64,000 bases of DNA from Campylobacterota bacterium (GCA_003252535.1 QKDN01000046.1:27183-91182); one strand, 5' to 3'; positions 17,213 to 38,967 are shown, numbered from the stretch's first letter. Notes: generated from the letters alone by a model not told the origin. Made by a program: numbers and translations.

Positions 17213-17350
17213 CCTTGCTCCTTATGTGCACTCTATACATTGTACTGAAAAAAAGTTTCATTTCGATGGTTGATTCAAAAATTAGAGAAATTTATTTGTC
17301 ACCCGCCAAAAATTAATTCATCGATGTCAAAAAATACTAGCACATATGAG

Positions 17351-18646
17351 TTAAAAGGAAAATCTACAATCTGCTTTGTAGACACCGTTGATAGCTCGAT
17401 ATTGGCCAGTGCTTGTCGGATATACCCTATGGGCAAACCCATGGGGGGTGGCAACAATATCTACGTGAGTGCAGGCATCGTAAGTTGGTTGGGTGACTAT
17501 GGACATCGCAGGTGTCTTCCGCATAGGTCTTGAGAAACTCATATTTGTGGTCAATTGTGCAAACCCTCCCGCAAGTCCGTACAGGAAGCCATATCCTTTT
17601 CCATGTGCGTATCCCTGCCAAACATAGGTGGTAATCTCTTCTAATGCTTCTGAATATGTTTTGACAATGGGTGAAACATACCTATCCGTGAGAGTCAATG
17701 CAAAGTCGGTCATATAGATGGTATCGTTGGAAGAGGCTGTAGAGATTGTGATATAAAACCCATTTTCAAAATTTTCATAGTCATTTGAATCGAGTGTGAT
17801 TGTCAAAAGACCATCAGCACTTATAGTGGCTGTCGTAAAATACCGAGTTGTTGTAGAGGGGTTGTCTACAGCACCAAATGTACTGATGGAGAGAGTGGCA
17901 CTTGCAATAGAACCCCTTTGGAATAAGGTAGAAACGGTAAATTTCTTTCCTTTGAATTTTTTAGCAATATCACTGTCAAAGAACTGCCTGATCGAAGATG
18001 ACGTAGCTGTAGTGTGTGTGATCACAATGGCATTTTTGTCGGTCCCCGGGAATGTCCCTTTTGTGGCAGTTGAACCACTGTTCCCCGTCACAAAATATAC
18101 ATCGGCGACATATTTCGTACTGTTGTCAGCGGTCCAGGTAGTATTCCCTTCCTGCCATACATCCATATGCGGATTGAGTGCATAATTGAATGTATGAATA
18201 TTTTGTTCAATATATGTTACCAGTGTTGAGATATATGTTTGTGTGTATGCCATCGCTATCCAGTCATCTACACCAGCAGCCGGTGGATTGGATGAACCTG
18301 AGTGCGTATACCATAGGATATCAGCGGCCAGCACGACCGTCTCCGGTGCTACAGTACCGCTCCCCGTATAGTTGGGATCGTAGCTGCCGTTTGCCAGCGC
18401 CTGGACTATAGCCGTACTCGACACGACCTCAGCGTGCTTGGTATCGATATCCGCACTTGCAGCATTGATACCGGTGATGACCGCTTGCAGCTTTGAGATG
18501 AATGCGGTGATCTCCGGCAGGATGGTCGTTTTCCAGTAGCTCAGCCAGCCGCTTGCTTTGGAGTTGAATGTCGTTTTCCCCTCGGCGATGAGCGGCACAT
18601 CAGGGGCATCGGTAAATTCATGATCTATTTGGTCTATTTGTGGCAT
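17351..18646 (-). CDS. phage tail fibre / receptor-binding protein, paralog 1
   Basis: Start taken at MPQIDQIDHEF (RBS AAGGAG upstream); first about 100 aa identical to next gene, C-terminus divergent, Ser/Thr-rich. Confidence 0.6.
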   Translation of the reverse strand: MPQIDQIDHEFTDAPDVPLIAEGKTTFNSKASGWLSYWKTTILPEITAFISKLQAVITGINAASADIDTKHAEVVSSTAIVQALANGSYDPNYTGSGTVAPETVVLAADILWYTHSGSSNPPAAGVDDWIAMAYTQTYISTLVTYIEQNIHTFNYALNPHMDVWQEGNTTWTADNSTKYVADVYFVTGNSGSTATKGTFPGTDKNAIVITHTTATSSSIRQFFDSDIAKKFKGKKFTVSTLFQRGSIASATLSISTFGAVDNPSTTTRYFTTATISADGLLTITLDSNDYENFENGFYITISTASSNDTIYMTDFALTLTDRYVSPIVKTYSEALEEITTYVWQGYAHGKGYGFLYGLAGGFAQLTTNMSFSRPMRKTPAMSIVTQPTYDACTHVDIVATPHGFAHRVYPTSTGQYRAINGVYKADCRFSF

Positions 18647-18690
18647 TTTTTTCTCCTTAGTATGATTGGATGAAGCTCTCTCGAAGAGGC
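18393..18690. repeat. direct repeat copy A (5' end of tail fibre gene plus about 40 bp upstream), about 90% identical to 19711..20010
   Basis: Direct nucleotide comparison of the two regions in this window. Confidence 0.85.
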
Positions 18691-18797
18691 ATTTGATACA
18701 CCTCTTCAAATGAAGTGTAGTTTCTGAGCCAAGAAATGACTCGAACTCAATATCTTGAAACTCTCAGTTCGCAACGATAAGTTGTGTCATTCTCATG

Positions 18798-19964
18798 CTA
18801 CACTGCGGTGATAGTGCATTGGCGATCAGAACCAATGCCGGGATGTGGTTGACTGTAGTTAGCGATTGCCATAGTAATAGTCAAGGTCGTACTCTCTCCT
18901 GAGGAAAGTGCGGATGTATCAATGGTAGTCGATGTAGTAGTATCACCAACACCAATCGTGACATAACCGTCTCCTCCATCGAAGATAATATAAGATTCAC
19001 CCAGTGATGGCGCATGACCCAATGCTAATGATACATCAACAGATTGTGTCCCTGCCGGTATCTGTATATCCGTTACAGGGAAGTACGCTTCGTAGGGCAT
19101 ATATTCGTCTCCTACTTCAACTGTGATATTGAAGTCGACATCGATGAGGTTCGTTGCTACTACCGGCTTAAAAAAGGTGTACACTTTGGCACTATCGACG
19201 AAGATGAACTGGTTTATCAGTTTTGCCGTATCCACTGATGAGAACGGTGCTGACATTGAGGTGGCTGGGCCGACAGTACCAACAGATTTTTCTGTATATT
19301 TGATATGACCGAATACACCGAGGTCGTGAGCAATCTTTAATATGTCGAGATTCGCATAGTACACAGTTCCGGCGACGAGATTCTGACTGTACGTGACAGA
19401 AAAGCTCCCCGTGATCTGGCAAAATGTACCCTGTCTGATAAGTCTCAAATCTACTTTATGTAGGTACTTTTCGGTTCCGGAAGGGGCTGATATGTCGAGA
19501 ATATCACTATTGCCATATTCTATAAGATAGCTCTCCGAATAGAATCTTGCTTCTCTCATGACGGGTGACACCATGATCCAGTCCACGCTTGATATGTTGG
19601 GCACATCTTCCGTACCGTTCGGCGTGTACCATATCGCGTCGTTGTATGATACTGTCGTATTCGCTGCCACGGTGCCGCTTCCTACATAGTTCGGCATGTA
19701 AGTACCATTCGCCAGCGCCTGGACTATAGCCGTACTCGACACGACCTCAGCGTGCTTGGTATCGATATCCGCGCTGGCTGCATTGATACCGGTGATGACA
19801 TCGCGCAGTTTCGAGATGAATGCGGTGATCTCCGGCAGGATGATTGTCTTCCAGTAGGTCAGCCAGCCGCTTGCTTTGGAGTTGAATGTCGTTTTTCCCT
19901 CGGCGATGAGCGGCACATCAGGGGCATCGGTAAATTCATGGTCTATTTGGTCTATTTGTGGCAT
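18798..19964 (-). CDS. phage tail fibre / receptor-binding protein, paralog 2
   Basis: Start at MPQIDQIDHEF; N-terminal about 100 aa identical to paralog 1; distinct C-terminal domain. Confidence 0.6.
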   Translation of the reverse strand: MPQIDQIDHEFTDAPDVPLIAEGKTTFNSKASGWLTYWKTIILPEITAFISKLRDVITGINAASADIDTKHAEVVSSTAIVQALANGTYMPNYVGSGTVAANTTVSYNDAIWYTPNGTEDVPNISSVDWIMVSPVMREARFYSESYLIEYGNSDILDISAPSGTEKYLHKVDLRLIRQGTFCQITGSFSVTYSQNLVAGTVYYANLDILKIAHDLGVFGHIKYTEKSVGTVGPATSMSAPFSSVDTAKLINQFIFVDSAKVYTFFKPVVATNLIDVDFNITVEVGDEYMPYEAYFPVTDIQIPAGTQSVDVSLALGHAPSLGESYIIFDGGDGYVTIGVGDTTTSTTIDTSALSSGESTTLTITMAIANYSQPHPGIGSDRQCTITAV

Positions 19965-20010
19965 TGCTGCTTCTCCTTCTAGTTTTGTTGTATGAAGCTC
20001 TCTATATCGA
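19711..20010. repeat. direct repeat copy B (see 18393..18690)
   Basis: Direct comparison; same orientation as copy A. Confidence 0.85.
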
Positions 20011-20905
20011 GTGAGCACTGCGACATCGAAGCGTTCTCATAGACCTGCACCATGGAGGTGTAGTATCCGAATTGTAAGAACGCCTCCACGCCGTCCATCA
20101 GTCTGAACATCGTCGCCTTGTTCGAGAGGCTGTCGAGCTTCTTTTTGGCAGCATCGAAGCTGTCCGAGGCAAGCTTGATATCGCAGCTGATAAGGTTGGC
20201 AAGGTCGCCTTTGACGAGCTGCACCTTCCCGAATGCATTCTTCTCCGGTTGCCGCGGATTCACCTGGGTGACCGATGCGCCAAACTGCGTACATCCGATC
20301 CCCTCTGTCCTCCCGGCGACGATAAATGCAAGCTCGGCAGTCGCAGTATCAGGCGTATGTATGATGATCTCTACTTTTTGTGAGAAATCTATAGTAAGCG
20401 GATGCGCTATGTTGGCACGAATGTCGCTGGGTACATCATATAAAAACCAATCATACAGATTGTCCGGCCCGCCATCATCGATGATGTCGTAAGTCGTATC
20501 GGCTATTATATCGCCCGTATCGTTGCGCTCAATCACCTGTACAGAGGCGCCCAGCACCCCCATGATCGCCAGCATATTGCACTTGTTACATGAGAATATC
20601 ACATGGAGATCTCCCACACAGGAACATACTGCCGTGGTCTCGCCGTGCTCGCTCATGATCTGATTGTAGGCGGTCAGCATAGCTTTAGAATTTACAGGCT
20701 GCTGTGGATACCACTTCGCAGACACGTTCGGTAGCTCAGTATCTGCTGTCGTGGTATCCTCGGTACACAGGTAGATATAGTCGTTGTATATCCTGTACTC
20801 ACCGGCTGCCACTACAGCGCCAGATACCCAGTCCGGGTATGTCTCGTCTATGGCATTGGTTTCCAGCTGCTCTATAGCCCTTGGTTCTACTACCTCAAAT
20901 TCCAT
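19979..20905 (-). CDS. phage tail structural protein, putative distal tail protein (Dit-like)
   Basis: 308 aa, located between tape measure and fibres as Dit is in siphovirus tail modules; no motif confirmation. Confidence 0.4.
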   Translation of the reverse strand: MEFEVVEPRAIEQLETNAIDETYPDWVSGAVVAAGEYRIYNDYIYLCTEDTTTADTELPNVSAKWYPQQPVNSKAMLTAYNQIMSEHGETTAVCSCVGDLHVIFSCNKCNMLAIMGVLGASVQVIERNDTGDIIADTTYDIIDDGGPDNLYDWFLYDVPSDIRANIAHPLTIDFSQKVEIIIHTPDTATAELAFIVAGRTEGIGCTQFGASVTQVNPRQPEKNAFGKVQLVKGDLANLISCDIKLASDSFDAAKKKLDSLSNKATMFRLMDGVEAFLQFGYYTSMVQVYENASMSQCSLDIESFIQQN

Positions 20906-20906
20906 C

Positions 20907-23900
20907 TTATGCCCTCGCCTTCACTTCGGTATAGAAGTTGTTCTTTTTTGTAGTCTTGAGCGTCTCTGCCGAGATCGCGTTCATCTCTTTGATCGTCTTT
21001 ATCAGCTCCATATTTTGCGACACCATAGAGCTCATCGACTTCTGCATATCCTGAAAGCTTCGCGTAGATACACGATCGACAGCAGTTGCCAGCTGCGGCG
21101 CCAACAGTCCGAATGACTGCTTGATATCCTGGGAGCCGGAGACGGATGCTTTTGCCGCTGTACTTGCAAGCTGCTGGGCAGTAGACGCAGATGATCTGCG
21201 CGTCCCGGTAGAGGCATTTGCAACCGTGCTCGCCAGTAGAGCCGCTGATTCAGTAATATATTTTTTGTCAGACTCTGATATTTTTTTCCCGGTGTTGGGC
21301 TGGGTGCCACCGCCCTCCCTGGCGATCAGTGCATCTATCATTTTGATCGCCGATGCGTTCACACTCTCGTCGATCTTGAGCAGCGTGGCGTCTATATTCT
21401 CGAGCAGCGCCTGCTCGGGAGGTGTTGCTATCCCCTGTATGTCAGCATTGGCTTTGGTGATCATAGAGATGAATTCCGCTTCGTTCCTAGCCGAGCTCTG
21501 CGCCTTTTCTGCAAAGTTCTGATAGGCGCCGGATACCCCTGCATAGTCACCGTTGTTGATCGCTTGCGACAGGAGTGTTTGGGACTGCGCCACCGTCCCG
21601 ATCGTGTACGAGCGCAGCGTCTCCATAGATGACTCTTTGGCCGAGAGTATGGATTCGCGCAGTGCGTTCGAGGCCTCTATCTCGGCGTTGATCCCGTCGA
21701 TCCTGGTCTGCTCTAGCTCTTTGAGCCTGTCCTTTTCTGCATTCGCCCAGGTATCTATCTGGGAGAGAACATCTTCTGATGCGACGCCCGATCTGATATT
21801 CTTCTGGATACCCGATGCAGTGATTTTGGCCGGCGTCGTATAGGCTGCCTTCGCATCGAGCAGCGTCTGCATAGCCGCCGCCCTCTCGTCTGCGAGCTGT
21901 TGCTCGTTGTCCATGAGCTGCTGCTGCATATCATAGAGTTCTGCGAACTGCGGAGAGAGTTCAAGGAGCTTGTCCTTGAGGGTCTCACCTGTCTTGCCGG
22001 TGAAGCTGAGCGAATCTACCAGATTTTTGAATTCTTCTTTTGTCTGTGGCATAGTGAGCCCAAGTGCATTCATGCTGTTCTGCAAATCTCCGGCAAGCAT
22101 GGAGGCCTGCTCCTCCGTGGAGTAGAAGCTACCTATAAAGCTATCAAGTGCTGCTTGTCTCGTGTCGTTGAGCTGCTGCTCCATATCATAGAGTTCTACG
22201 AACTGCGGAGAGAGTTCAAGGAGCTTGTCCTTGAGGGTCTCTCCCGCTGCTCCGCTGAGACCGAGCGAGTCTGCCAGTTTATTGAATTCTTCTTTCGTCT
22301 TTGGTGTCATCGTGTCTGCGTTTCCACTGAAGCTGAGCGAATCTACCAGATTTTTGAATTCTTCTTTTGTCTGTGGCATAGTGAGCCCAAGTGCATTCAT
22401 GCTGTTTTGCAAATCTCCGGCAAGCATGGAGGCCTGCTCCTCCGTGGAGTAGAAGCTGGAGATGTAGCTGTCCAATGCTGATTGCCTCTTATCCGCGAGC
22501 TGCTGCTCCATGTCGATCATCTTGGCATACTCCGGGGAGAGTGCTATGAGTTCGCCATAGAGCTTGGCACTCTCCTCGTCCGTTACTTTGAATCCCTGGA
22601 TCAGATCGGCAAAACCTTCGGCTGTGTCGGGGAGCTTGATACCAAGAGTCTTGGCCGAGCTTTCCAGGTTGTTTTTGACGATGTTGTACTGTTCCTGGTC
22701 CGAGAGGAAGTTTTGCTGGAATGACTGCATGGCAGACGAGAATGCATCCTGACCACCGGCAGCTTCTACCACATCGAGGGTGGCCTCCTGCGCAGAATAT
22801 ATCTTGCCCCATCCTTTGCCGAAGCTTGCCATTGATGATGCCATTTGTACAGCCATAGAGGAAGCAGCATCCATATCCCCGTTCTGAATAGCTGCTGACA
22901 TGCTCTTAGCCATAGTAGACATGGAGTTGCCGGTCTTATGTGACTTGACTATATTGTCGCCTATGATGACGCCGATATCCTCCAGCTGTGCTGAAGACTG
23001 CTCGTATGTGACCGCCAGACGCCCAAGCGTCTCCAGACCATCCTCCCCTGCCTTGCCGTATTTATCTACCCAGCGGTCGATTTCACCTACGCCGCCAAGT
23101 ACCCCAGAGAAATACTCGCTATACGCCGCCTCTATACGTTTTGATGCCTCTTCTGGCGACAACCCCTCAAGGTCTATCTTGCCGATCTCGACCTCGACCT
23201 TCTTGAGCGCATCTTCGTATTGACCGAGCCCGAGCGTCCCGATCGCCTCGAAGATGAAATCATAACCCTCCTGGAACGCCTCTGTGAAATATGACTGCTG
23301 TTCAGCAGTGAGGTCGATGACGGTATCTTTTGTGTACTGCTTCGTCGACAGCCCGAAATATTTTTTCTTCGTGATGATCTCTGTCGTATACCCCTGTACT
23401 ACGCCATCCATGAAGGTATCGTAGCTTGAAGCCCCCATGATCACTCCGGTGCTGAGCATCTCCCGGGAAGTCGAGCTCCAGATGCCTCCTGATTGCGACG
23501 GCTTGTAGTCAGCCCCCGTCAGGTCGACCCCTGCCGATCCGGCTACGGAAATGGCTTTCCCTATGAGAACGAAGTTCTTGTCCATTGAGGCGAGATACTT
23601 CGTCATCTGGTAGGTAGATTCGAGCAGCGGGTCCTGTGCACTCTCGAATATCCCTTTCAGATTTGCCAGTGACTCGTCTGAGAAGTCCGTGCGCCCTTTG
23701 GCTGCTTCTTTTTCTGCATCGGTGAGGGTATCGGTGAGGGATGACGACAGAAATGAAAGTCCTACCCCGATGGCCATTGCAAAGACATTACCGCTCATCC
23801 CCCCCAGGCTATTGAGCCCGGAGCTTAAGGTGGATGCAAGCGACTCCGAGAGGTTGTTGACTATCGGTTTGACGAGCTCTGAGGAGACTCCATCGACAAA

Positions 23901-25859
23901 ACCTTTGAACGCACCGGAGAAGTCCCCTTTGAAAACACCCCCCAGCAGCCCTTTGAACTCGTCGGTGAAGTCGAGTGCGCCGCCATGGTGTTTCTTCCAC
24001 ATTGCGTCATTGGCTTTAGCGACATCTTCAGCGGTCATTTTCCCGGCAGCCCTGAGCTTCTCGAATTCTTTCTTCGCCTCTGCTGCGTCAAGCTCGAAGA
24101 GTTTTTCCTTCTGTCCTGTCAGCTCCAGGAATTTGCGGTAGGATGATTCCAGGTCTTTGGTGGATGAGGCTGCATTCTTCACGCCTGATGCGTGTTCTTT
24201 TGCCGCATTGACCCCTTTTTTCCCGCTTTCATCAGCCTTTTTCCCCATATCTTCGGTCGCTTTTGACAGCTCTTTGGTAGATGCGGTTTCTTTGGCAGTT
24301 TCCTTTGTTACCTTGCCTGTACCCGAAGCAATCTTTTTCCATGTATCTGCTATCGCATCTGCTGTGGTAGCCTGAGTCTTGTATGCTTCGTTAAGTGATG
24401 CATTTGTGCTTCCCGTATCGATGAGCTTTTTGGTAGATTTCGTTGCAGCTTCGATAGATGATTCGTACGAGCCTATAGATATAACGATAGGCTTGAATGG
24501 GTTTTCCTTTCCCGCTAACGCAAATACATTGTCAAAACCAGAAGAAAACGAATTGATAAACTCCGATACAACCCTGAGCAATCCATTGATCATAGCATAG
24601 AAACCCTCGCCGATAGCATCTACTACAAACTTGAAAGTGTTCTGCATAGATACAGTCAGAGAGTTCCATCCATCGCCTATTACATTGATTCCATCTTCAA
24701 TACCCAGTACTACTTCGTAGAAGCCAACGCGCAAGGTTGCTCCCATGTTCAGGAATCCAAGCCCGGCAAGCTGTGCAGTAGAACCGACATGAACCCCTAG
24801 TGCTGCTATGAGATCAAGAACCCCATTGACCTCGTCTTTGATTTGCAGAAAGTCCAGTGCGCCACCCAAGGCATCACTGATACCTTCACCCACGACAACT
24901 ATTGCTTGAGGAAGATATGAAAAAGTGTCGTATATATCCCCGGCCATCGTGACGAAAGTACCGGTTACGGATTGTCCGATACTGGCTGCTTCTGGTCCGA
25001 GGTCATTGAGTATGCGGGTGAGCTCTTTCGCCCCATCTTTCTGCGCGTCGAATATCGGCTGTGTGATCTTCCCGGCGAACATATCCCATGTCGTGCTGAG
25101 GTTGGACATGGCGTAGGCGTATGTATCCTGCTCGGTACCGGTCTCGCTGAGTTTCTCTTTGAGGAACGCTACTTTGTCCCCGGCGGCAGCGTAGGATTCT
25201 TTGGTGACGCCAAGTGTCTGCATCATCTTGCCGAAACCGCTGTTGGCATCCCATGTGCCGTCCGCCATATCGTTGATCCCGGCTGAGAGATCATCGGTCG
25301 AGAGGTTCAGGTTGGATGCGCTGTTGGTGACGAGCTTGAGTATATCCGCCTGATCCTTGAGCGCCCAGTTGTTGCGCTCCATCCCCGGTTTGGCGAGGGC
25401 ATAGATATCGACGAGCTCGCTCATCCCCCTGCCGGTCTTTGTGCTGGTCTTCTCGAGGAGTGACATCATCGCCGCCACTTCGCCGGATACGAGCTTCTGC
25501 CGCTCCATCGCCGTGACCTGTTGCCCTGTTGTGAGCGTCAACCCTTTGGATGCCAATACGATCGCTGTCAACTTTGCCTTGCTAGCGTCCATGGTCTTGT
25601 TGTATTCAAGACCGCTATGCATGACAAAATCGAATGCCTGTTTGAGCGATATGATCTTTCCGACACTCGAGCCCAGATCGCTGATGGTGTTTTTGATACG
25701 GCCGATGGCAGAGGATGTCTGCGCAGCCTCGGTTTTGAGACTGTCGAACTGTGTCAAGACGACACTTATATCCCCTGTCCTGGCATCGACCGAGAGGACG
25801 ATCTCAAGATTCTGTTGCATTTGCCTGTACCCCCCGCTCGATGGTTTTGATATTTTCAA
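20907..25859 (-). CDS. phage tail length tape measure protein
   Basis: 1650 aa, largely alpha-helical/low complexity, internal tandem repeats (MPQTKEEFKNLVDSLSF...LKDKLLELSPQF.ELYDM), directly downstream of G/GT chaperone pair; possible alternative start at MQQNLEIV (25820). Confidence 0.85.
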   Translation of the reverse strand: MKISKPSSGGYRQMQQNLEIVLSVDARTGDISVVLTQFDSLKTEAAQTSSAIGRIKNTISDLGSSVGKIISLKQAFDFVMHSGLEYNKTMDASKAKLTAIVLASKGLTLTTGQQVTAMERQKLVSGEVAAMMSLLEKTSTKTGRGMSELVDIYALAKPGMERNNWALKDQADILKLVTNSASNLNLSTDDLSAGINDMADGTWDANSGFGKMMQTLGVTKESYAAAGDKVAFLKEKLSETGTEQDTYAYAMSNLSTTWDMFAGKITQPIFDAQKDGAKELTRILNDLGPEAASIGQSVTGTFVTMAGDIYDTFSYLPQAIVVVGEGISDALGGALDFLQIKDEVNGVLDLIAALGVHVGSTAQLAGLGFLNMGATLRVGFYEVVLGIEDGINVIGDGWNSLTVSMQNTFKFVVDAIGEGFYAMINGLLRVVSEFINSFSSGFDNVFALAGKENPFKPIVISIGSYESSIEAATKSTKKLIDTGSTNASLNEAYKTQATTADAIADTWKKIASGTGKVTKETAKETASTKELSKATEDMGKKADESGKKGVNAAKEHASGVKNAASSTKDLESSYRKFLELTGQKEKLFELDAAEAKKEFEKLRAAGKMTAEDVAKANDAMWKKHHGGALDFTDEFKGLLGGVFKGDFSGAFKGFVDGVSSELVKPIVNNLSESLASTLSSGLNSLGGMSGNVFAMAIGVGLSFLSSSLTDTLTDAEKEAAKGRTDFSDESLANLKGIFESAQDPLLESTYQMTKYLASMDKNFVLIGKAISVAGSAGVDLTGADYKPSQSGGIWSSTSREMLSTGVIMGASSYDTFMDGVVQGYTTEIITKKKYFGLSTKQYTKDTVIDLTAEQQSYFTEAFQEGYDFIFEAIGTLGLGQYEDALKKVEVEIGKIDLEGLSPEEASKRIEAAYSEYFSGVLGGVGEIDRWVDKYGKAGEDGLETLGRLAVTYEQSSAQLEDIGVIIGDNIVKSHKTGNSMSTMAKSMSAAIQNGDMDAASSMAVQMASSMASFGKGWGKIYSAQEATLDVVEAAGGQDAFSSAMQSFQQNFLSDQEQYNIVKNNLESSAKTLGIKLPDTAEGFADLIQGFKVTDEESAKLYGELIALSPEYAKMIDMEQQLADKRQSALDSYISSFYSTEEQASMLAGDLQNSMNALGLTMPQTKEEFKNLVDSLSFSGNADTMTPKTKEEFNKLADSLGLSGAAGETLKDKLLELSPQFVELYDMEQQLNDTRQAALDSFIGSFYSTEEQASMLAGDLQNSMNALGLTMPQTKEEFKNLVDSLSFTGKTGETLKDKLLELSPQFAELYDMQQQLMDNEQQLADERAAAMQTLLDAKAAYTTPAKITASGIQKNIRSGVASEDVLSQIDTWANAEKDRLKELEQTRIDGINAEIEASNALRESILSAKESSMETLRSYTIGTVAQSQTLLSQAINNGDYAGVSGAYQNFAEKAQSSARNEAEFISMITKANADIQGIATPPEQALLENIDATLLKIDESVNASAIKMIDALIAREGGGTQPNTGKKISESDKKYITESAALLASTVANASTGTRRSSASTAQQLASTAAKASVSGSQDIKQSFGLLAPQLATAVDRVSTRSFQDMQKSMSSMVSQNMELIKTIKEMNAISAETLKTTKKNNFYTEVKARA

Positions 25860-26058: not shown

Positions 26059-26117
26059 CCCCTCGAAGCCCGGCGTATCGCCGTTCGAGAGCTGTGTAGC
26101 GTAGGAGATGAGGTCTT

Positions 26118-30355: not shown

Positions 30356-30816
30356 GGATGCTCCTTTGCTCTGTTCTCCCGTATCCGGGTCTGTATCCTC
30401 TCGAAGCTCTTCCTGAGCTGCTCGTCCTGCGTCAGGATGGCGAACTCTCCGCTGCTGCGTTCATGCGGCGCGTCGTCGCCCCTGTCTGTCGTCTGCTGCT
30501 TCGGCTTCAGCCTCGCCGCTATGTCGCGGAACCATATCTTCCCCTGCATCCGCTCGTCGACAAATATCTGCCGCATCCGGCGCAGCACATCCTCTTTCGT
30601 CCCGGCGAACTCCCGGACGATCCCCGGATGATCGAAGTGCAGCACGAGCGCCCCGCCGTGGATGGAGCCGTAGTGGAAGTACTTCTGCTGCCGCTCGTCA
30701 AGAGCCCCGGCGAGCTTGCGGATCAGCTCTGCCTCGGCGAGCTTCGGCGAAGAGAGGGCGCTCCCGCTCCCGATCTGCTCGTCTGTCCTTTTGCATACTG
30801 CATTGGGTATCATCAT
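30352..30816 (-). CDS. phage hypothetical protein
   Basis: 154 aa, ATGA-coupled to gemA-like. Confidence 0.45.
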   Translation of the reverse strand: MMIPNAVCKRTDEQIGSGSALSSPKLAEAELIRKLAGALDERQQKYFHYGSIHGGALVLHFDHPGIVREFAGTKEDVLRRMRQIFVDERMQGKIWFRDIAARLKPKQQTTDRGDDAPHERSSGEFAILTQDEQLRKSFERIQTRIRENRAKEHP

Positions 30817-31451: not shown

Positions 31452-31873
31452 CTCCCCCTGATCTTTCGGATATCGTAGACCTCCCTGGCATCCCTCCCCT
31501 CGAGTGTCGTGATCTGCCAGTGGGGCATATCCCAGCCCCATTTCGCATAGCCCCACTCGATGGGGAGATCGTAGCGGCTGATGATCTCCTGCATGGCTGC
31601 CCTGATCCCGGCATAGTAGCGTTCTTCCCACGAGGGTTTGCCGTCGACGAATGCCACCAGGTCGACCGCCAGCCCGTAGAGGTGGCAGGAGTTGTTCGTT
31701 TTGCTCGATCCCTTCGCTACGAGCTTCGCCTGCTCCTCGGGGGTACGCAGCCCGTCGAACACCATGAAGTCCTGCTTTGTGATGGCGATCGCCTGCATCA
31801 CTGCGAACGCCAGGATGGGATGGACGCCGTCAAGCTCTTTGAGTGAGCGTTTTGAAAGTCTGTACCCGCTCAT
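31448..31873 (-). CDS. peptidase M15 (VanY/L-Ala-D-Glu peptidase family), probable endolysin
   Basis: 141 aa; HLYGLAVDL Zn-binding motif and overall M15A pattern. Confidence 0.6.
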   Translation of the reverse strand: MSGYRLSKRSLKELDGVHPILAFAVMQAIAITKQDFMVFDGLRTPEEQAKLVAKGSSKTNNSCHLYGLAVDLVAFVDGKPSWEERYYAGIRAAMQEIISRYDLPIEWGYAKWGWDMPHWQITTLEGRDAREVYDIRKIRGR

Positions 31874-32379
31874 GCTGCATCCTGCTGTATCTTCTCGATG
31901 TTCGGCTGGATGCGGAAGCTGTCTCTGACCGTCTTTCTGAGTCCGAGTTTCACGAGGACGCTGTCGTCGAGCTCCGCGATCTCATCCCTGTCTGGTCGCT
32001 CCTCGTACACGATACATGACTGGTACCCGTACGCCTTGAGGCTCCTGAGCAGCGCTTCGACCCGCTCCCTGGTCCTGGGGATCGAGACCGACTTGACGAG
32101 CCTGTATCCTATCGTGCCGAAGTTGAGCACCCTGGAGCGTCTACTCGCAAACTCCGCTTTGTTGGCTTCGCAGAAGAGCTCGATAGCTTTCTCCAGTTGT
32201 TTTTTGTCGTTGTCGATCTCCTGGGAGATGGCTTTGGCCTCCTCTCTGATCTTGTTGATCTTCAGTGTCGTATCGCCGTCGATCTGGCTCTTTTCGATAT
32301 CTATTTCGGCGATGCGGCGCAGCGCGTTATCCACATCGTCCCAGCTGTTGATCGTTGTTGTTGTATTGGTTGTTTTCAT
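31870..32379 (-). CDS. Mu Gam-like host-nuclease inhibitor protein
   Basis: 169 aa; coiled-coil N-terminus then motif pattern matching the Gam family. Confidence 0.55.
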   Translation of the reverse strand: MKTTNTTTTINSWDDVDNALRRIAEIDIEKSQIDGDTTLKINKIREEAKAISQEIDNDKKQLEKAIELFCEANKAEFASRRSRVLNFGTIGYRLVKSVSIPRTRERVEALLRSLKAYGYQSCIVYEERPDRDEIAELDDSVLVKLGLRKTVRDSFRIQPNIEKIQQDAA

Positions 32380-32520: not shown

Positions 32521-32705
32521 CTCTTGTCCCTTTTCGCTTTCCCCGTGGGGCACTTCTCTATGGATGCAGTGGAGCGCATCCTGTGCCTGCATCTTCCGCT
32601 TTTGGCATCGGTACGCGGCAGCCGCACGGCAACCCTGCGTACATGGAAGGGGCACCTGTCGCATCCTAGCGCAAACTCGTGTCTGGTGTATATCCCGATG
32701 TTCAC
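32517..32705 (-). CDS. small Cys-containing protein (GTG start)
   Basis: 62 aa, GTGA overlap with upstream ORF stop. Confidence 0.25.
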   Translation of the reverse strand: MNIGIYTRHEFALGCDRCPFHVRRVAVRLPRTDAKSGRCRHRMRSTASIEKCPTGKAKRDKR

Positions 32706-32929
32706 GATGCCGCCCCGCCGCTGCCGTGCAGCAGCTGCCAGACGCTCATGTACTGCGGCTCTCCCAATGCCGGCACCTCCACGGCAGGGGCGCCGAGCGA
32801 GATCATCGAGGGGCCGCCGTCGTGTTCGTACTCCACACTGTCCATCACCGCGGCAAATACCTTCGCCATCTTCTCATCCTCGGTATCGAGGACGCTCTTT
32901 CTCTCCGCTCTGTATCCGATCATCTTCAT
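32702..32929 (-). CDS. small phage early protein (75 aa)
   Basis: MKMIGYRAERKS...; ATGA overlap with upstream. Confidence 0.3.
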   Translation of the reverse strand: MKMIGYRAERKSVLDTEDEKMAKVFAAVMDSVEYEHDGGPSMISLGAPAVEVPALGEPQYMSVWQLLHGSGGAAS

Positions 32930-33258
32930 CTCTTCTCCTTCTCGAAAAATATCTCCACAGGGTCGATCCCGATCCCTGCACAGAGCCCGGCTATCTTTTC
33001 CTGGCCAGGATTGTTGATCATCCGTATGCCGCCGGCCCAGTATCTTTTTTGCCCCAGTTTTCGGGAGAGGCTGGTGTCGCTCTCTGCCCCCAGCGCCGTC
33101 CGCAGCGCATCGATCACTTCCGATCCGTTTCTCCTCCGCATCCCGGCAGGGAGGGGGATATCGGTCTCTTCGCTCCGCCTCGCCTTCCGTCTGACCGTAA
33201 GCCTCCGGTCTCCCGACGCCATCGCCACCATCTCCTCGAAGGATGGTCTGCTGCTCAT
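32926..33258 (-). CDS. small HTH-like phage early protein (110 aa)
   Basis: Start at MSSRPSFEEM; ...IDALRTALGAESDTSLSRKLGQKRYWAGGI helix-turn-helix-like segment. Confidence 0.35.
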   Translation of the reverse strand: MSSRPSFEEMVAMASGDRRLTVRRKARRSEETDIPLPAGMRRRNGSEVIDALRTALGAESDTSLSRKLGQKRYWAGGIRMINNPGQEKIAGLCAGIGIDPVEIFFEKEKR

Positions 33259-33581
33259 CTGCCGCCTCCTCTCCCGCACGATCCGCACGCATGTTTCACT
33301 ATGGAGAAGTGGTATCCTCCGATACTCACCCCGTCCCTCACCGCCGCGGCGTACTTTCGGCACACTGCGGGATGGATCTCGTCCTCCAGCGCCTCGCATC
33401 GGATGTGCTCCTCTGCGCCGTAGTATTGCTCCAGCAGCTCGTATATCTTCGAGCCGTCCGCTCCGTATTTCCCCGAGCGCAGCAGGGAGATGGCGGTGCG
33501 GCTCCTGCCGATCCTCTCGGCCACCCGCTGCACTACGCCACCCTCTGCCGCTATCGCTCTCTCCAGCAGTTCCGTACTCAT
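33255..33581 (-). CDS. small DNA-binding/Cys-rich phage early protein
   Basis: Start at MSTELLERAI; HTH-like VVQRVAERIGRSRTAISLL, C-terminal Cys cluster. Confidence 0.35.
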   Translation of the reverse strand: MSTELLERAIAAEGGVVQRVAERIGRSRTAISLLRSGKYGADGSKIYELLEQYYGAEEHIRCEALEDEIHPAVCRKYAAAVRDGVSIGGYHFSIVKHACGSCGRGGGR

Positions 33582-33793
33582 ACGCTCGCTCCTGTGTATC
33601 TGTATTCTCTCTCCATGATCCTCCTTGCCGTGTTGGTCTTCACCACGATGCCGCTGCGCTCCCACTCGCTCATCCATCTGGAGAGCTTGAAGAGAGGGTA
33701 GTCGGTGATCACCGCCACATCCCCCAGGCGGAACCCGCTGTTGCGCCGCATATAGCGCAGCACCGCTTCCTTTTTGTATTTAACCCTTGCCAT
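33578..33793 (-). CDS. small phage early protein (71-77 aa)
   Basis: MARVKYKKEAVLRYMRRNSGF...; overlaps MuB-like stop. Confidence 0.3.
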   Translation of the reverse strand: MARVKYKKEAVLRYMRRNSGFRLGDVAVITDYPLFKLSRWMSEWERSGIVVKTNTARRIMEREYRYTGASV

Positions 33794-34481
33794 TTTCCAC
33801 CCCCAGCTCACGGAACGCAGCCAGCGACACGCTCGTGATGTCCTGGAGCTCGCATGCCTTCTCCAGGCGGGTGAGCAGCACCCTGATCTGCCGGAGGTTG
33901 GGGTATTTCCTGGCGAGGTATGCCACCAGGTCGCTCTCCACCTTCACCTCGCACAGCTCGCAGAACTTCCCCACATCGCCCGCACCGATCGCCTCGAACT
34001 CCACCAGCTCCACCACCCGGCTGTAGTAGTGTCGGTGGCGTTTGAGCTTGGCGTTGCTCTCCTCCATCCCGATGAAGAAGAGGATGATGGAGGTCTCGTC
34101 GTGGATATCGCGCAGCAGCTCCAGCGTCCCGATCTTCTCGCCCCGCAGCAGCGCGTCGATCTCGTCGATGATGATGATGCGGGGCTCCCTGCGCAGATCG
34201 TCGATCACCCGCTCGTACATCCTCCCACTCCCTCCCGAGATATCGAGATCGAGCTCGAGGCAGAGTTTTTCCAATAATTGTTTCTTGCTCCATGTCTGGG
34301 CTGCCCGCAGCAGGATGGCGTTCTTCTTGACCGCGATCCGCTCCAGCCCGAAGGTCTTCCCCAGTCCGAAATTCCCGTACCCCAGCCCCATACGCGGCGA
34401 TGACGCGCTCAGGCTCTCGAGCCTCCCGAAGCTCTCCAGCATCGTTACATAGTTGGCGGTATCTACAAATACTTCTTTCAC
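33780..34481 (-). CDS. MuB-like transposition ATPase
   Basis: 233 aa; Walker A GYGNFGLGKT, Walker B IIIDEID; directly downstream of DDE transposase. Confidence 0.7.
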   Translation of the reverse strand: MKEVFVDTANYVTMLESFGRLESLSASSPRMGLGYGNFGLGKTFGLERIAVKKNAILLRAAQTWSKKQLLEKLCLELDLDISGGSGRMYERVIDDLRREPRIIIIDEIDALLRGEKIGTLELLRDIHDETSIILFFIGMEESNAKLKRHRHYYSRVVELVEFEAIGAGDVGKFCELCEVKVESDLVAYLARKYPNLRQIRVLLTRLEKACELQDITSVSLAAFRELGVENGKG

Positions 34482-34507: not shown

Positions 34508-36433
34508 CTACGCGCTGCTTTTAACGCTCTTCTTTGCCATCTCCCATATCTCCGGGTTGGCAGCCGCCAGCGCCCTGTCCTTGTCGTCTATAGTCCCCTC
34601 GCCGAGCTTCCTGACAAAGCGCTCGAGCAGCGAGGCATACTTGACCACCCCTTTGGCTCTTTTCGTACGCTCCTCATCCTGCATCTCCTGCCGCTCTTCA
34701 TCTCTCTCCTCACTCCTTGCCTCCTCATTTTCGCTGCTGTGTACACCGGCGATGATCCTGTCGTACTCTTCGCCCCGTTTCTCCGCCTCTCTGACCGCTT
34801 TGTTGGCTTTGGAGGCGAGGCGGTTGTAGGCGCTGCGAGCCTCTTTGATGATGCTCCGCTTCGCTTCGTCGCTCACTGCCGGATCGCTTGCGGTACAGAT
34901 GAATTTGCCATTCTCCGGGTCGTACACGGCGACGCTGTGCATATCGTCTGGCTCGATCACCCTCACCCTGCGGCCGATCCACTCGACCAATGCGGTCTCC
35001 CAGTAGATGTTCCTGATGCCGTCTGTGGTGATGACGATCCCCTCCTTGGTGACGGTGCGTACTCTCGATACCCCCATCATCAGATCGAGGGAGCGCTCAC
35101 TCGCCACCCGTCTCGTATGGTGGCCGCTCCACCGCTCGGCCGGGCTCATCCCCAGCGAAGAGTGGCGGCGGTGCTCGTACTTCTCCACCCACTGCTCCAG
35201 AGCTTCCCGGAGCTCGTCGGAGGAGATGGGGATATCGACGAACATATCGGCCTCTCCCCGCCGCAGGATCGCCCTGGCGAACCCGCTCTCGCTCCACTGC
35301 TTCTCCTTCCATCTCGCTATCGCCTCCCGCCGCTTCTCGAAGCTCTTGGACGATCGCAGCGCCTGCGCCTCGGCTACATTGTGCCCGACGAAGCCGCGCA
35401 GCGTACGGAAGAGGTCGCGTGTCAGCGTCCCGAAGAACCGCTCGATATGCGGCTTCATCTCCCCGCTGTACGGGGGAACCTCCCTCTTGCCGATCCCCAT
35501 CGCCAGGCAGATATCCTCGATGTGGTTGCTCGTATAATCCCTGCCGTTGTCGACGATCAGCAGCTCGGGCAGTCCCATCTTGAGGATGGCCCCGCGCAGG
35601 TTGCGGCTCACGGCGTAGCTGCTCGTGCTCTTCTCCATCGAGACGAACACACGGCGGCTGTAGACATCGATCGCCCCGTAGATCGTCCACCGCATCCCGT
35701 CGCTCGTCATCACATCCGCAGGGGTGGCGTCGAGCTCCCAGGCGGCATTGGGGTACCGGTAGGCCTCCGATGCGCTGCCTATGGCGGGTTTGTACTGCCC
35801 CTTTGCGCGGTCGGGGTTGGTGGCGTGATCCCAGAGGTGGCGGTTGGCCTGCTTCCATGCCGCTGCCCACCGCTCCACGGTACGCTGCGACGGTGCGTCG
35901 GGGTAGACCTGCCGCAGCCGCTCACAGATGCTGCTCATGAGCGGATGGATGTCGCGGCGGAGCAGCTCGGATCGGACGAACTCCTGCATCGCCTCCGTCA
36001 TCACCGTAGAGCCTTTCGGTCTGCCGCGCCCGTCACGGAGCGCCTCCACGACGCTCTCCCCTCTGGCGTAGGCTCCCTTGTAGAGGCGTATCCACCGCCT
36101 GAGACTCTGCTCGCTCACCCTCGCATCCCCCAGCTCTTCGACGAACCGGCGCAGGCTCCCCGAGCGCCGCAGTGCCATCTGCACCACGGTCACCCGGTGA
36201 TCGTCCCCCATCGATGGCTTGCGCTCGGGTACCGATGTCGCCTTCGGCTCGACCCATATCTCGTAGACCGTACCGCCGTTGCCGCCGACCCCGTCGCGTT
36301 CGCGGTAGAGGTAGCGTGTCGAGCCGCGCTTGCAGGCAGCCTGTATGGCTCGCGAGCTCACACCGTAGACGATGGCCGCTTCGGTGGTGCTCACCCACAT
36401 TGGAGCCCCTCCCAGGGGAGTGAGCCGATCCAC
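34508..36433 (-). CDS. Mu-type DDE transposase (MuA-like)
   Basis: 641 aa; N-terminal HTH, rve core with D (WELDATP), D (IVDNGRDY), E (PHIERFF); acidic C-terminal tail; alternative start at MWVSTTE. Confidence 0.85.
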   Translation of the reverse strand: MDRLTPLGGAPMWVSTTEAAIVYGVSSRAIQAACKRGSTRYLYRERDGVGGNGGTVYEIWVEPKATSVPERKPSMGDDHRVTVVQMALRRSGSLRRFVEELGDARVSEQSLRRWIRLYKGAYARGESVVEALRDGRGRPKGSTVMTEAMQEFVRSELLRRDIHPLMSSICERLRQVYPDAPSQRTVERWAAAWKQANRHLWDHATNPDRAKGQYKPAIGSASEAYRYPNAAWELDATPADVMTSDGMRWTIYGAIDVYSRRVFVSMEKSTSSYAVSRNLRGAILKMGLPELLIVDNGRDYTSNHIEDICLAMGIGKREVPPYSGEMKPHIERFFGTLTRDLFRTLRGFVGHNVAEAQALRSSKSFEKRREAIARWKEKQWSESGFARAILRRGEADMFVDIPISSDELREALEQWVEKYEHRRHSSLGMSPAERWSGHHTRRVASERSLDLMMGVSRVRTVTKEGIVITTDGIRNIYWETALVEWIGRRVRVIEPDDMHSVAVYDPENGKFICTASDPAVSDEAKRSIIKEARSAYNRLASKANKAVREAEKRGEEYDRIIAGVHSSENEEARSEERDEERQEMQDEERTKRAKGVVKYASLLERFVRKLGEGTIDDKDRALAAANPEIWEMAKKSVKSSA

Positions 36434-36615
36434 ACCCCGTCTCTTTTGAGATTGGAGATGGTCTTGCGTACCATCCCCGTCCCGCCGTTCCTCTCGCCGG
36501 TGAGCTTCTCCGCCAGCACCAGCGAGAGGATCGTCTGATTGAGCCCCTTCGCCCTGGCGTAGCTGTTGACCCCGTAGCCTTTTTTCCTGAACCTCTCTCT
36601 GATACTCTCTTCCAT
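36391..36615 (-). CDS. Ner-like DNA-binding protein
   Basis: Start at MEESIRERF; small basic HTH protein immediately upstream of transposase as Ner in Mu. Confidence 0.5.
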   Translation of the reverse strand: MEESIRERFRKKGYGVNSYARAKGLNQTILSLVLAEKLTGERNGGTGMVRKTISNLKRDGVWIGSLPWEGLQCG

Positions 36616-36647: not shown

Positions 36648-37607
36648 TCACACTGCTATGTTGTCTGTGTTGTCTATGTTGTATAGATACTTTTTTCCTG
36701 CGACCTTCTTGGTGTAGAACCGCCCTTCAAATTTCTCGAGGACGGCTCTCGCGCTCTTGTTTTCGTGGCTCTCGCCGATCTGTGCGAAAAGCTCCCGCTG
36801 GTTCAGTTCTCCATGCTTCTCCAGCGCCTTGATGACCCGGTCTACGATACTCTGCTCATAGTCGCTCATCCTGACGCTCTCCAGGTCGATCTCCGAGAGC
36901 CGCAGCTCCCCGGTGTCGATCTCCCACCCCTTGTCCAGTACGCTCGCACGCTCCTTCTGCACCTCCGTCCACAGCCGCAGCCGTCCGCCGCCCGAGGGAC
37001 GGGGATGGACACGGTACATCACATCGATGGAGTTGCGGATCTGGTTGGAGCCCTGGTAGTTGCCGCCGTCCTTGTTGGAGTGGTGGAGGACGATGATCGT
37101 CGCTCCGGCCTCGCGGATGTTCATCAGGGCGTTCATGATCTTCGCCATCTTCGCATCGTTGCGCAGGTCGATCGCGGCATCCTTGAGTGAATCGATGACG
37201 AGCACCATGTCGCTGTACGCCTCCCCCACCGCCATCTCCGCCATACGCATCAGGATGCTGAAGGGATCGCTCTGCATAGAGGTGCGGTGGATGAAGGTCA
37301 TCCGCTCGTACGCCCCTATGAGTATCCGGTCCACCCCGCGCTTCTTGAGCTCGCTTGCGGGATTGTCGGCATCGATCACCACCACTTCCATCCCGGTGCT
37401 ATCGAGTATCCGGTGGAGCACGGAGTGGAGGAGCCAGCTCTTGCCTACCCCGCCGTCGGCATACCACAGGCTGATGAGCCCTTTGGGGAGAAATCCCTCA
37501 ATGATATGCTCCGTACTCCGTTCGAACACCCCCTTGTCTATCGCCATCTCTTTGAGATAACGCAATGCTTCGCCATTCACGACTCCTCCTTGTACCTTAT
37601 GACCCAT
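36648..37607 (-). CDS. RecA-superfamily ATPase (AAA_25-like)
   Basis: 319 aa; Walker A YADGGVGKSW, Walker B VLVIDSL, strong RBS AGGAGG; first gene of early operon. Confidence 0.6.
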   Translation of the reverse strand: MGHKVQGGVVNGEALRYLKEMAIDKGVFERSTEHIIEGFLPKGLISLWYADGGVGKSWLLHSVLHRILDSTGMEVVVIDADNPASELKKRGVDRILIGAYERMTFIHRTSMQSDPFSILMRMAEMAVGEAYSDMVLVIDSLKDAAIDLRNDAKMAKIMNALMNIREAGATIIVLHHSNKDGGNYQGSNQIRNSIDVMYRVHPRPSGGGRLRLWTEVQKERASVLDKGWEIDTGELRLSEIDLESVRMSDYEQSIVDRVIKALEKHGELNQRELFAQIGESHENKSARAVLEKFEGRFYTKKVAGKKYLYNIDNTDNIAV

Positions 37608-37846
37608 CGCCCCTCGGGACGATCGGAGATAGGGTTCAGGTGTTCTTGTATGTTGCCGTACGCTCTCCTACGGACTTCTCTGGCCTTTTACTCACCGTTT
37701 TAGAGGTGTCGTCTGCGGACGCTCAGACGAAAAATGTTAATAAACACAATCATTTGCTATAATTAATCAAGTGATTAAGGAATTATAGAGTAAATATTCT
37801 TCAATGTCAAGAGATTTGAAGAAATTTTCATCAAAAAGGGTGATTT

Positions 37847-38488
37847 ATGAACAGGTTGAAGGAAATAAGGGCGTTTCTCGGGCTATCACAGCAGGAAATG
37901 GCAGACCAGATAGGGGAAAAACGGTACAGGATCAACGATATGGAGAATGGCAAGACAAAGATCCAGGTCGATTTTGCAGAGCTTCTTGAAGAAAAATTCA
38001 ACATCAACCCGTGGTGGCTGCTGACAGGCAAGGGGAATATGGAGAAGAAGAGTACCGAGAAGATCGAGCTGGTAATGGATGATACTATCAGGATGCCCTT
38101 CGTCCGCGGCCAGGCACAGGCGGGAAGGGGTAACGATATCTCCGATATCCGCTACGAAGTGGTGGATACCATGTCGATCTCCAGGGCGCTCTTCAAGACA
38201 CCGCCCACCTCCACCGTCCGTATCATCAAGGTAGACGGCTACAGTATGATCCCTACCCTCTACCCCGACAGCTACTGTATCTTCGATGAATGCGGCCGCT
38301 TCATCACCGACGGACTCTATATCATCAATTACGGCAACGAGCTCATGGTCAAGCTCCTGCAACAGTCCCCCGACGGCAAGCTCCACATCAGATCGACCAA
38401 CCCGGACTACGCCAGCTGGACCATAGACCCTGCATCCGACCAGACACACTTACACATTATAGGCAAAGTACTCCGAATCATCATCTGA
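37847..38488 (+). CDS. CI/LexA-like repressor (HTH_XRE + S24 peptidase)
   Basis: 213 aa; N-terminal HTH (LGLSQQEMADQIG), C-terminal S24 with GYSM Ser and MVKL Lys; divergent from early operon. Confidence 0.8.
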   Translation: MNRLKEIRAFLGLSQQEMADQIGEKRYRINDMENGKTKIQVDFAELLEEKFNINPWWLLTGKGNMEKKSTEKIELVMDDTIRMPFVRGQAQAGRGNDISDIRYEVVDTMSISRALFKTPPTSTVRIIKVDGYSMIPTLYPDSYCIFDECGRFITDGLYIINYGNELMVKLLQQSPDGKLHIRSTNPDYASWTIDPASDQTHLHIIGKVLRIII

Positions 38489-38528
38489 TCCCTTTTGGCA
38501 ACGACACCCCTGTCACTGCCAAAAACGA

Positions 38529-38560
38529 TATTCGTCAATGTTCGCCAAATGTTCGCCAAT
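38529..38560. repeat. three tandem approx 11-bp repeats TATTCGTCAA / TGTTCGCCAAA / TGTTCGCCAAT
   Basis: Seen directly; similar CGCCAAA-core sites at 38511..38525 and 17297..17312. Confidence 0.6.
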
Positions 38561-38967
38561 ATTCCCCAACACCGCCCAAGCACGCTCACCGATCACACCG
38601 CCAACCCGCCTTGCCCCAACTCCTGCCCAAAATTGACACCCACCAAAAAGCTCATACCTGACAACATCCCCAACCCCCTGCAATCAAGCACTCCAAGCAC
38701 ATCACAATTAACCATTTTATTTGCTGTTTTACACTGATTATATTGCATTACAGTTGTTTGCCAGATTGAATAGTTCAAATATATGTAGTTGCATCATGTC
38801 ATAAAGCTAGAATATATTAATTCAATCATATACCTCGGGGATGGAAAAAAGGGTACTGTTCCTCGAAAACAGGAACGGCAGACTGACAGAGACCGATATG
38901 GAGAGTGTGGAATTTTACTCGGGCATCAGGTGATACGACCGATACGGGCTGAGTGCCCGTACGGATG

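Follow-up and report, generated by a model that had tools for sequence, protein, structure and literature searches.

The stretch of DNA analyzed here, hereafter the window, comprises 64,000 nucleotides (nt) from a Campylobacterota bacterium (GCA_003252535.1, QKDN01000046.1:27183-91182) and harbors a Mu-like transposable element at approximately 17.35-38.49 kb. The phage genes of this element cover some 21.5 kb and lie mostly on the minus strand; coordinates below refer to the window and, unless the plus strand is stated, to minus-strand genes. Read from its repressor, the element encodes a Mu-style early module, an inverted lysis cassette and the tail genes of a siphophage. The genes for packaging DNA and building a head are missing, and what stands in their place provides the key to the history of the element.

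The stretch of 2 kb that separates the last early gene, encoding a four-cysteine zinc-ribbon (Zn-ribbon) protein, from the gene of a 44-amino-acid (aa) protein contains lysis genes and a 55-aa open reading frame (ORF) on the plus strand and a 112-aa ORF on the minus strand, and has no homolog in those relatives that were recognized through the tail tube protein. The 55-aa ORF (28407..28574, plus strand) matches residues 439-487 of the 495-aa Portal_Mu protein of a complete Mu-like siphophage locus, L030 (relatives are denoted by L numbers), with 37% identity over 49 aa in BLASTP (E = 3e-7), and the match is recovered both by phmmer (6.5e-5) and by tblastn on the whole window (3e-4). This similarity identifies the ORF as what remains of the 3' end of a Mu-type portal gene, namely its final ~49 codons, and as a deletion scar. 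Between this relic and the 112-aa gene lies a divergent late control region (28157..28264). It contains a palindrome, GTCACTC-N15-GAGTGA, located at 28210-28239 and found only once in the window; two promoter-like sites that face both ways, with TATACT -10 boxes and -35 hexamers overlapping the palindrome half-sites; and a ribosome-binding site (RBS), GGAGGAG. Positions 28157-28239 align to the portal/protease intergenic region of L030 with a score of 40, compared to 18.5 +/- 2.9 for shuffled sequences, none of which (0/500) reaches 40. The palindrome, the -10 element TATACTGC and the RBS GGAGGAG are common to both control regions, and the same -10 element is conserved before the protease gene of tube-family relatives (L012, L027, L009). 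A putative remnant of the start of the protease gene (~18 codons), located behind the RBS, yielded a score of 27, too weak to be claimed. The alignment indicates that the late control region is kept and that both arms flanking it are truncated.

The holin/spanin cassette (28407-29589, plus strand) is transcribed toward the early operon and away from the tail operon. It encodes a holin-like membrane protein of 114 aa (28664..29008), which presents hydrophobic segments, a match to the phrog_2359 holin family (3.6e-4) and a GC content at third codon positions (GC3) of 0.77, consistent with coding. Gene calls and translations then identify three genes in close succession (29005..29589): a 29-aa membrane peptide, an i-spanin-like protein of 103 aa (29091-29402) with an N-terminal transmembrane segment and a coiled coil, and an o-spanin-like lipoprotein of 79 aa (29350-29589, lipobox ISGC), whose gene overlaps that of the i-spanin-like protein. 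The o-spanin-like protein weakly resembles the lipoprotein encoded at the end of the lysis cassette of L032 (E = 6e-5); no homolog of the cassette was detected in tube-family relatives, even at lenient thresholds. An initial annotation of this DNA had placed the lysis and tail genes directly after the late activator, an arrangement that does not hold, since the holin/spanin cassette is inverted and the endolysin gene belongs to the early/middle operon.

The tail tube protein of the element has 27 homologs, with identities of 41-88%, and the genomic context of 13 distinct relatives with readable upstream sequence was compiled from IMG/VR, ENA, JGI, NCBI and Logan data. These relatives include prophages in Sulfurovum and Sulfurimonas metagenome-assembled genomes, and several are demonstrably Mu-like, as they carry GemA, AAA_25, transposase and MuB genes. 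A head module comprising terminase, portal, protease and capsid genes lies upstream of the tube gene in all 13. Its order is that of an inverted terminase-portal pair, an S78-type protease, a capsid protein of ~310 aa and two small connector genes, followed, before the tube gene, by holin and spanins in several relatives and by a 42-48-aa gene in many. A fourteenth relative, L030, was traced through the 112-aa gene and also has a head module at that position. In L012/L013 (20499-20936) the head-tail module resides in a phage that shows no transposase; it carries Bro/AntA genes upstream and encodes a tyrosine integrase beyond the tail genes. The structural module is thus mosaic and is swapped between transposable and integrase-type temperate phages.

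The closest relative is the IMG/VR uncultivated virus genome 3300027985_000870, a 29.9-kb contig that is collinear with the element in its early half and in its tail half alike. Its transposase and MuB proteins are 31-46% identical to those of the window, and its endolysin, HD and 153-aa genes show 72-78% nucleotide identity, up to window position 30362. Homology restarts at 27760 and continues through the tail at 67-79%. The gap between these homologous parts spans 11.1 kb in the closest relative, including the head module, and 2.6 kb in the window. A second type of Mu-like siphophage is formed by loci L030-L033. In this type the Zn-ribbon gene is followed by inverted Tail_S, Mu_F, Portal_Mu, terminase and DUF1804 genes and by the divergent intergenic region; then come a Mu-type protease, a gpT capsid, 51-aa and 105-aa genes and a 116-aa homolog of the 112-aa protein, and finally 75-aa and 61-aa genes, tube, tape measure, tip protein, fibers, M15 endolysin, holin and spanins. 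The identity of the Zn-ribbon proteins, the portal relic and the intergenic alignment tie the gap region of the window to this type. Terminase and portal genes that lie on the strand opposite to capsid and tail, with a shared divergent intergenic region, were observed in L001, L008, L009, L012, L015-L018, L020, L027 and L030, a layout that is unusual for siphophages and seems characteristic of this uncultured group. In L009, a complete relative, a TIR/SEFIR-domain gene (19214-20158) sits just past the tail fiber genes and may be a defense or counter-defense gene at the phage end.

Two kinds of search address the absence of head genes. With 14 head/neck proteins of a complete relative as queries, tblastn returned no match in the whole 64 kb, and phmmer, run with 41 reference proteins drawn from three types of related phage on all element ORFs of at least 25 aa, returned four matches only: the portal relic, the 112-aa protein, the tube and a 308-aa protein. 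No unassigned ORF is big enough to encode a terminase, portal or capsid protein. Terminase, MuF, protease/scaffold, capsid and connector genes were not found in the element, and the portal gene is represented solely by its 49-codon relic. The initial claim that the element contains no head gene is therefore correct for intact head, packaging and connector genes and has to be amended for the portal remnant. Complete relatives also possess a 150-aa gene of the phrog_5 family ('tail completion or Neck1 protein') and, besides it, three other small genes of the neck; tblastn and phmmer found a counterpart in the window for none of these. Since tblastn missed the 36%-identical 112/116-aa pair, which BLASTP and phmmer found, the absence test for small neck proteins rests on phmmer. 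The position of the 112-aa gene itself fits a neck or terminator gene.

The head-less state can be polarized, because all 14 relatives with readable context have a head module at this position, which makes its lack in the window a derived condition. Deletion is favored because the portal fragment and the conserved control region sit between two truncated arms, and because collinearity with the closest relative extends to either side of the gap. Taken together, this evidence makes descent of the element, by deletion, from a head-encoding Mu-like siphophage close to certain, and thereby favors an explanation that the initial annotation had put forward as an alternative. That annotation had also pointed to head-containing versions of the element in closely related strains, with a deletion scar in the window, as evidence against its own proposal. 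The scar is present and such versions exist at the family level, at 45-88% tube identity, rather than among closely related strains. Comparison with the complete loci indicates that head genes were removed to either side of the promoter region, in no fewer than two deletions and one replacement. From one arm, both terminase genes (small and large) and the greater part of the portal gene have gone; this arm likewise lacks MuF and Tail_S, and the holin and spanin genes are found there instead. The other arm has lost everything from the protease gene through the 105-aa gene.

The early half of the element opens with a 213-aa repressor (37847..38488, plus strand), divergent from the early operon, that combines a helix-turn-helix (HTH) domain (HTH_19/HTH_3) with Peptidase_S24 (PF00717, 3e-13). 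Its GYSM and VKLL motifs would occupy the positions of the Ser-Lys dyad of LexA and CI. A recA gene is present in the window (61829-62893), and the host hence has the co-protease required for autocleavage of S24 repressors. The first gene of the early operon encodes a 319-aa AAA_25 ATPase (36648..37607; AAA_25 3e-16, phrog_6357 3.5e-78). In relatives this gene is found directly upstream of GemA (L014 8475-9407; L008 178-1095), which implies that the early region has been rearranged too. A Ner-like small HTH protein (36391..36615, 74 aa as called; phrog_925 HTH DNA binding protein, 5e-5) follows, with 55% identity to the product of the gene preceding the transposase in the closest relative. The 630-aa MuA-type DDE transposase (34508..36400; Pfam rve and Mu-transpos_C) is ~30% identical to those of known Mu-like siphophages and retains the D..D..E columns in alignment with Mu MuA (D336, E392). 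Adjoining it is the gene for a MuB-like AAA+ ATPase of 233 aa (33780..34481; Pfam AAA_22 and TniB), 46% identical to the counterpart in the closest relative.

Four small ORFs of 77, 108, 110 and 75 aa come next (32702..33811); they are supported by gene calls on an independently assembled Logan contig and match no Pfam family. The operon continues with Gam (31870..32379, 169 aa; Phage_Mu_Gam 6e-34) and with an M15 peptidase endolysin of 141 aa (31448..31873; Peptidase_M15_4), which lies within the early/middle operon and is 76% identical to that of the closest relative. Downstream are a 191-aa HD/YfbR-like deoxynucleotide monophosphatase (30876..31451; Pfam YfbR-like, phrog_318 4e-48), a 153-aa protein (30352..30813) that is 71% identical to its counterpart in the closest relative and has a weak, below cut-off match to DciA (0.002), and GemA (29957..30355, 132 aa; Pfam GemA 6e-11). 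The 69-aa Zn-ribbon protein (29737..29946; weak Zn_ribbon_NrdR match) is encoded by the last gene ahead of the deleted region, and shares 58% identity with that of L030 and 33-38% with those of L008 and L009. It had been labeled Ogr-like, an analogy of size and position only: the protein is a generic four-cysteine Zn ribbon and does not match Ogr_Delta. Its location, which is that of Mor, makes it a candidate late activator. The overall order of repressor, Ner-like protein, A and B, then Gam and GemA, fits a Mu-like phage, with an extra AAA_25 gene before the Ner-like gene, and the Pfam matches for S24 repressor, DDE transposase, MuB-like ATPase, Gam and GemA bear out the Mu-style early module described initially.

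The tail-ward operon starts with the 112-aa gene (27759..28097), whose product belongs to a rare virion-module family. Word-index searches with the 112-aa and GemA proteins returned only the queries themselves, and it was a full HMMER scan of 1.8 billion representatives that revealed seven homologs of the 112-aa protein (114-121 aa, 26-39% identity). The 116-aa protein of L030 is 36% identical to it (E = 3e-22) and is encoded between capsid and tube; scans of IMG/VR with two of the homologs found nothing. The protein had been named as the tail terminator; this label finds no confirmation, and no function can be assigned to it. Profile searches of PDB sequences gave chance matches only, leaving it without a PDB or profile assignment; hhalign detected no relation to the two connector families of the relatives, for which PDB profile searches likewise produced chance matches only; and a single-sequence AlphaFold (AF2) model was unusable, with a predicted local distance difference test (pLDDT) score of 41.6. 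The 44-aa ORF (27616..27750) is conserved immediately 5' of the tube gene and marks the point at which homology to the closest relative sets in again. Exact look-ups of the 44-aa protein and of the RecA protein of the window returned no record.

The 309-aa tail tube protein (26683..27612) is of the double-domain T5 pb6/P74-26 type. A homolog 88% identical to it passes the curated cut-off of Pfam PF18906 (Phage_tube_2), and an AF2 model built with 28 homologs (pLDDT 86.8) has template modeling scores of 0.6-0.74 to the tubes of T5 (pb6/p140), P74-26 and SH-Ab15497. Two ORFs of 181 and 84 aa (25804..26663) occupy the position of tail assembly chaperones by synteny with all relatives; they match no family and show no evidence of a frameshift product, so the G/GT frameshift assumed at first is not confirmed. 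The tape measure protein of 1650 aa (20907..25859; phrog_25966 and phrog_7740) contains an internal duplication (window 21316-22482), in which a segment of ~80-100 aa (…SFYSTEEQASMLAGDLQNSMNALGLTMPQTKEEFKNLVDSLSF…) is present twice. Both copies map to a single region of the tape measure gene of the closest relative, and the duplication may explain the length of the protein, 1650 aa compared to 1597 aa in that relative. It is followed by a 308-aa conserved tail-tip protein (19979..20905), whose homologs also come after the tape measure gene in relatives; it belongs to phrog_6278 (function unknown, 1e-33), and its earlier designation as Dit-like finds no confirmation.

Two fiber-like paralogs of 388 and 431 aa (from the MPQIDQ start; 17351..19964) close the operon. 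They have a common N-terminus and different C-termini, with 78% identity over the first 133 aa and none beyond. The proximal fiber is 42% identical to that of the closest relative. The distal fiber gene has a GC content of 45.5% and a GC3 of 0.46, clearly below the values elsewhere in the element, a contrast that suggests the recent acquisition of a receptor-binding cassette. Pfam and PHROG searches identified no sheath-like ORF or match, and the tail is accordingly of the non-contractile type. The siphovirus tail module had been described as full; it contains tube, tape measure and fiber-like genes and is not demonstrably complete, the phrog_5 tail-completion/Neck1 gene being absent. Neither tblastn of the tube, holin and 308-aa proteins nor megablast of the whole element retrieved anything among isolated phages, and a second copy or orthologous locus was sought without success among 5.8 billion proteins and in GTDB genomes, JGI metagenomes and IMG/VR.

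The element is flanked by a gene for an 869-aa RCC1-repeat lipoprotein (14603-17212), with about a dozen RCC1-like repeats (WGxNxYGQLGDG), and by a cusA-type efflux gene (38968-42030), both on the minus strand. Its early half has a GC content of 57-64% and its tail half one of 45-55%, so the description of the element as GC-rich applies to the former only. The start codon of the RCC1 gene and the stop codon of the fiber gene are 138 nt apart, scant space for a transposon end and a host promoter. Ends had been proposed at 17241 and 38752, and the borders of the element lend these positions no support: 17213-17360 and 38489-38967 compared in inverted orientation score 15, below the shuffle mean of 18, revealing no terminal inverted repeat; nor does any TG..CA pair come with a 5-bp direct repeat (target duplication). 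These tests for Mu-type ends were made without an empty site and without known end sequences of this phage family, and they cannot tell a lost end from unrecognized ends. The ends of the contig of the closest relative display neither an inverted repeat nor similarity to the ends of the element. Two further candidates were discarded: a 31-nt direct similarity between 17297-17328 and 38510-38541, considered as an end repeat, is within shuffle range, and a TTCGYCAA repeat near the repressor, considered as an end or binding repeat, is not enriched.

Three C-rich repeats (TCCCCAAC…) lie at 38563-38701, with spacings of 50 and 54 nt, between the repressor gene and the cus operon. Beside them are a tandem AATGTTCGCCA x2 (38537-38558) and a 19-nt hairpin (38488-38529). 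These features may belong to the host or serve as left-end binding sites for the transposase or the repressor; no counterpart was detected at the fiber end. No empty insertion site was found, the exact CusA and RCC1 proteins being present only on the contig of the window and its Logan fragments. Apart from Logan contigs of the same run, the exact transposase protein and the exact tube protein likewise each occur on one contig only. Searches for tRNA genes and tandem repeats found none.

We consider it probable that the element is a defective prophage that has lost its head, packaging and neck module and might still release free tails. Plain decay draws on the single instance, the kept mobility genes, the pseudogene scar, the missing neck genes and the lack of ends, and we give it reasonable credence on these grounds. 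Several observations weigh on the other side. All retained ORFs look intact, including those for the 1650-aa tape measure protein and the transposase. At least two, and probably three, events all fell in head genes and left untouched the promoter region, the genes for lysis and ~10 kb of tail genes; such head-only loss is not obviously neutral decay and hints at selection for the remainder. The two fiber paralogs with different C-termini also recall, by analogy, the duplicated fiber sets of F-type pyocins.

If the remaining genes are expressed, homology, position and motif conservation allow us to infer a regulatory cascade. DNA damage would activate RecA and trigger self-cleavage of the S24 repressor, turning on the early operon with its transposase, MuB, Gam, endolysin, GemA and Zn-ribbon protein. 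The Zn-ribbon protein, or another activator, would then turn on the divergent late promoters at the palindrome. Tail proteins would be made, and holin, spanins and endolysin would lyse the cell; as no capsids could be formed, no infectious particles would be expected.

These same genes admit the proposal that the element is a nascent or domesticated F-type tailocin, in which S24-controlled induction would yield DNA-free tails that kill competitors and the Mu module would be a leftover or a dosage amplifier. Head genes are gone on both sides of a conserved late control region; the tube, the ORFs in chaperone position, the tape measure, the tip protein and two fibers are intact; holin, spanins and endolysin are present; and an S24-domain repressor is accompanied by recA in the same window. 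Known tailocin loci are fixed, conserved chromosomal loci devoid of mobility or replication genes, with proven killing. Here the transposition module (transposase, MuB and Gam) is kept, unlike in those loci, the collections searched hold no second copy or orthologous locus, and the portal pseudogene fragment suggests a young, untidy deletion. The phrog_5 Neck1 gene and the three small neck genes of relatives are absent as well, a loss that need not abolish activity: F2 pyocin expressed without its terminator, which is encoded elsewhere, forms particles of uncontrolled length and keeps its killing activity (PMC13455828), while monocin has a terminator of its own, FtbF (PMC11830787). On balance we hold this proposal to be unlikely, and tailocin domestication to be possible but unsupported. 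Of the transposable tailocin advanced in the initial annotation, what remains is a head-less architecture compatible with free tails. A more specific version, an early-stage F-type tailocin on a Mu-type backbone, appears doubtful; in it, selection would have stripped both arms of the late control region of their head genes while preserving tails, lysis and two alternative fibers, and replicative transposition following repressor cleavage would amplify the tail genes before lysis.

The intact appearance of transposase, MuB and Gam also raises the question of a helper-dependent natural mini-Mu, which would have kept its ends along with transposase and MuB, replicate by transposition, be packaged into the heads of a co-resident complete Mu-like phage and contribute its own tails and fibers. 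Laboratory mini-Mu elements get packaged by helper Mu, and at 21 kb the element is below a headful, the contig of the closest relative measuring 29.9 kb. The 64-kb window, however, contains no helper phage; no ends, pac site or target duplication were identified, and no second transposase insertion site was found. No satellite is known to supply tails but not heads, and we regard this explanation as very improbable.

The window derives from one 91-kb metagenomic contig (NCBI, JGI), which we compared with the independent Logan assembly of SRR7216773. A first Logan contig extends from the cus genes to window position 27625 and takes in the early region and Zn-ribbon gene, then the lysis cassette in its inverted orientation and the 112-aa gene; a second leads from 27651 into the tape measure gene; and a third connects fiber 1 to the host rpoA region. 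A Logan contig also begins inside the duplicated fiber region (18422). The three contigs are 100% identical to the window, and between them they recover both element-host junctions and both internal novel junctions (Zn ribbon/inverted lysis cassette and 112-aa/44-aa gene). The single break between Logan contigs (27625-27651, with a 27-nt overlap) falls in the A-rich 3' end of the 44-aa gene, ahead of the tube gene; it may be due to a related phage in the sample or to a coverage problem, and leaves the head-less conclusion unaffected. An assembly artifact or minority variant, in which the head module was skipped or two elements were joined, would fit a graph branch from a related phage at this overlap and is nonetheless highly unlikely, given that both novel junctions lie in one contig reaching the cus genes, that the fiber-host junction lies in another single contig, that all contigs are identical to the window and that the portal relic and truncated arms are present in the sequence itself.

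Defective prophages and F-type tailocins are already known; the novelty lies in the reduction of a Mu-type transposable siphophage to its genes for regulation, transposition, lysis and tail, with the scars documented. If the element is only a decaying prophage, it represents an ordinary but cleanly documented instance of head-module loss, complete with relic, breakpoints and complete relatives. Should its tails be produced and put to use, it would stand midway between phage and tailocin and would extend tailocins to Mu-type siphophages and to the sulfur-oxidizing Campylobacterota of vents and sediments. This intermediate stage is seldom observed, because known tailocin loci are old and tidy. 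The element would then be the first tailocin known to have arisen from a transposable siphophage and also the first with a potential to relocate its own locus. In either case, the comparison outlines a poorly described family of Mu-like siphophages. Its members combine a terminase-portal arm in inverted orientation with a late control region that contains a palindrome; they further have a Zn-ribbon gene where Mor would lie and a double-domain tube protein of the T5 type.

Among known systems, the element resembles Mu-like siphophages (B3/D3112-like phages, RcapMu, Pseudoalteromonas HS6, Ralstonia RS138) in its early gene order and non-contractile tail, and shares with uncultured Campylobacterota relatives its entire tail operon as well as the genes for the endolysin, the HD protein and the 153-aa protein. 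It differs from these Mu-like relatives in lacking head genes, in a lysis cassette that is non-homologous and inverted, in the displaced AAA_25 gene and in the lack of detectable Mu-type ends. With F-type tailocins, such as the F-pyocins of Pseudomonas aeruginosa and the monocin of Listeria, it shares a head-less cluster of tube, tape measure, tip and fiber genes, together with a lysis cassette, duplicated fiber genes and a DNA-damage-type regulator, the last of which would make it inducible. The fold of its tube, related to siphophage tubes, is a further point of likeness (PMC13455828; PMC11830787), although that tube is of the double-domain T5 type and not of the lambda or TP901-1 type. Unlike those tailocins, the element is a single instance with a full transposition module, a pseudogene scar and no identified terminator. 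To cryptic prophages it is alike in that modules have been deleted and gene fragments left while other modules stay intact; in contrast to generic prophage decay, its losses are confined to head genes on both sides of the late promoter region, and what they leave is a coherent set of regulator, lysis and tail genes.

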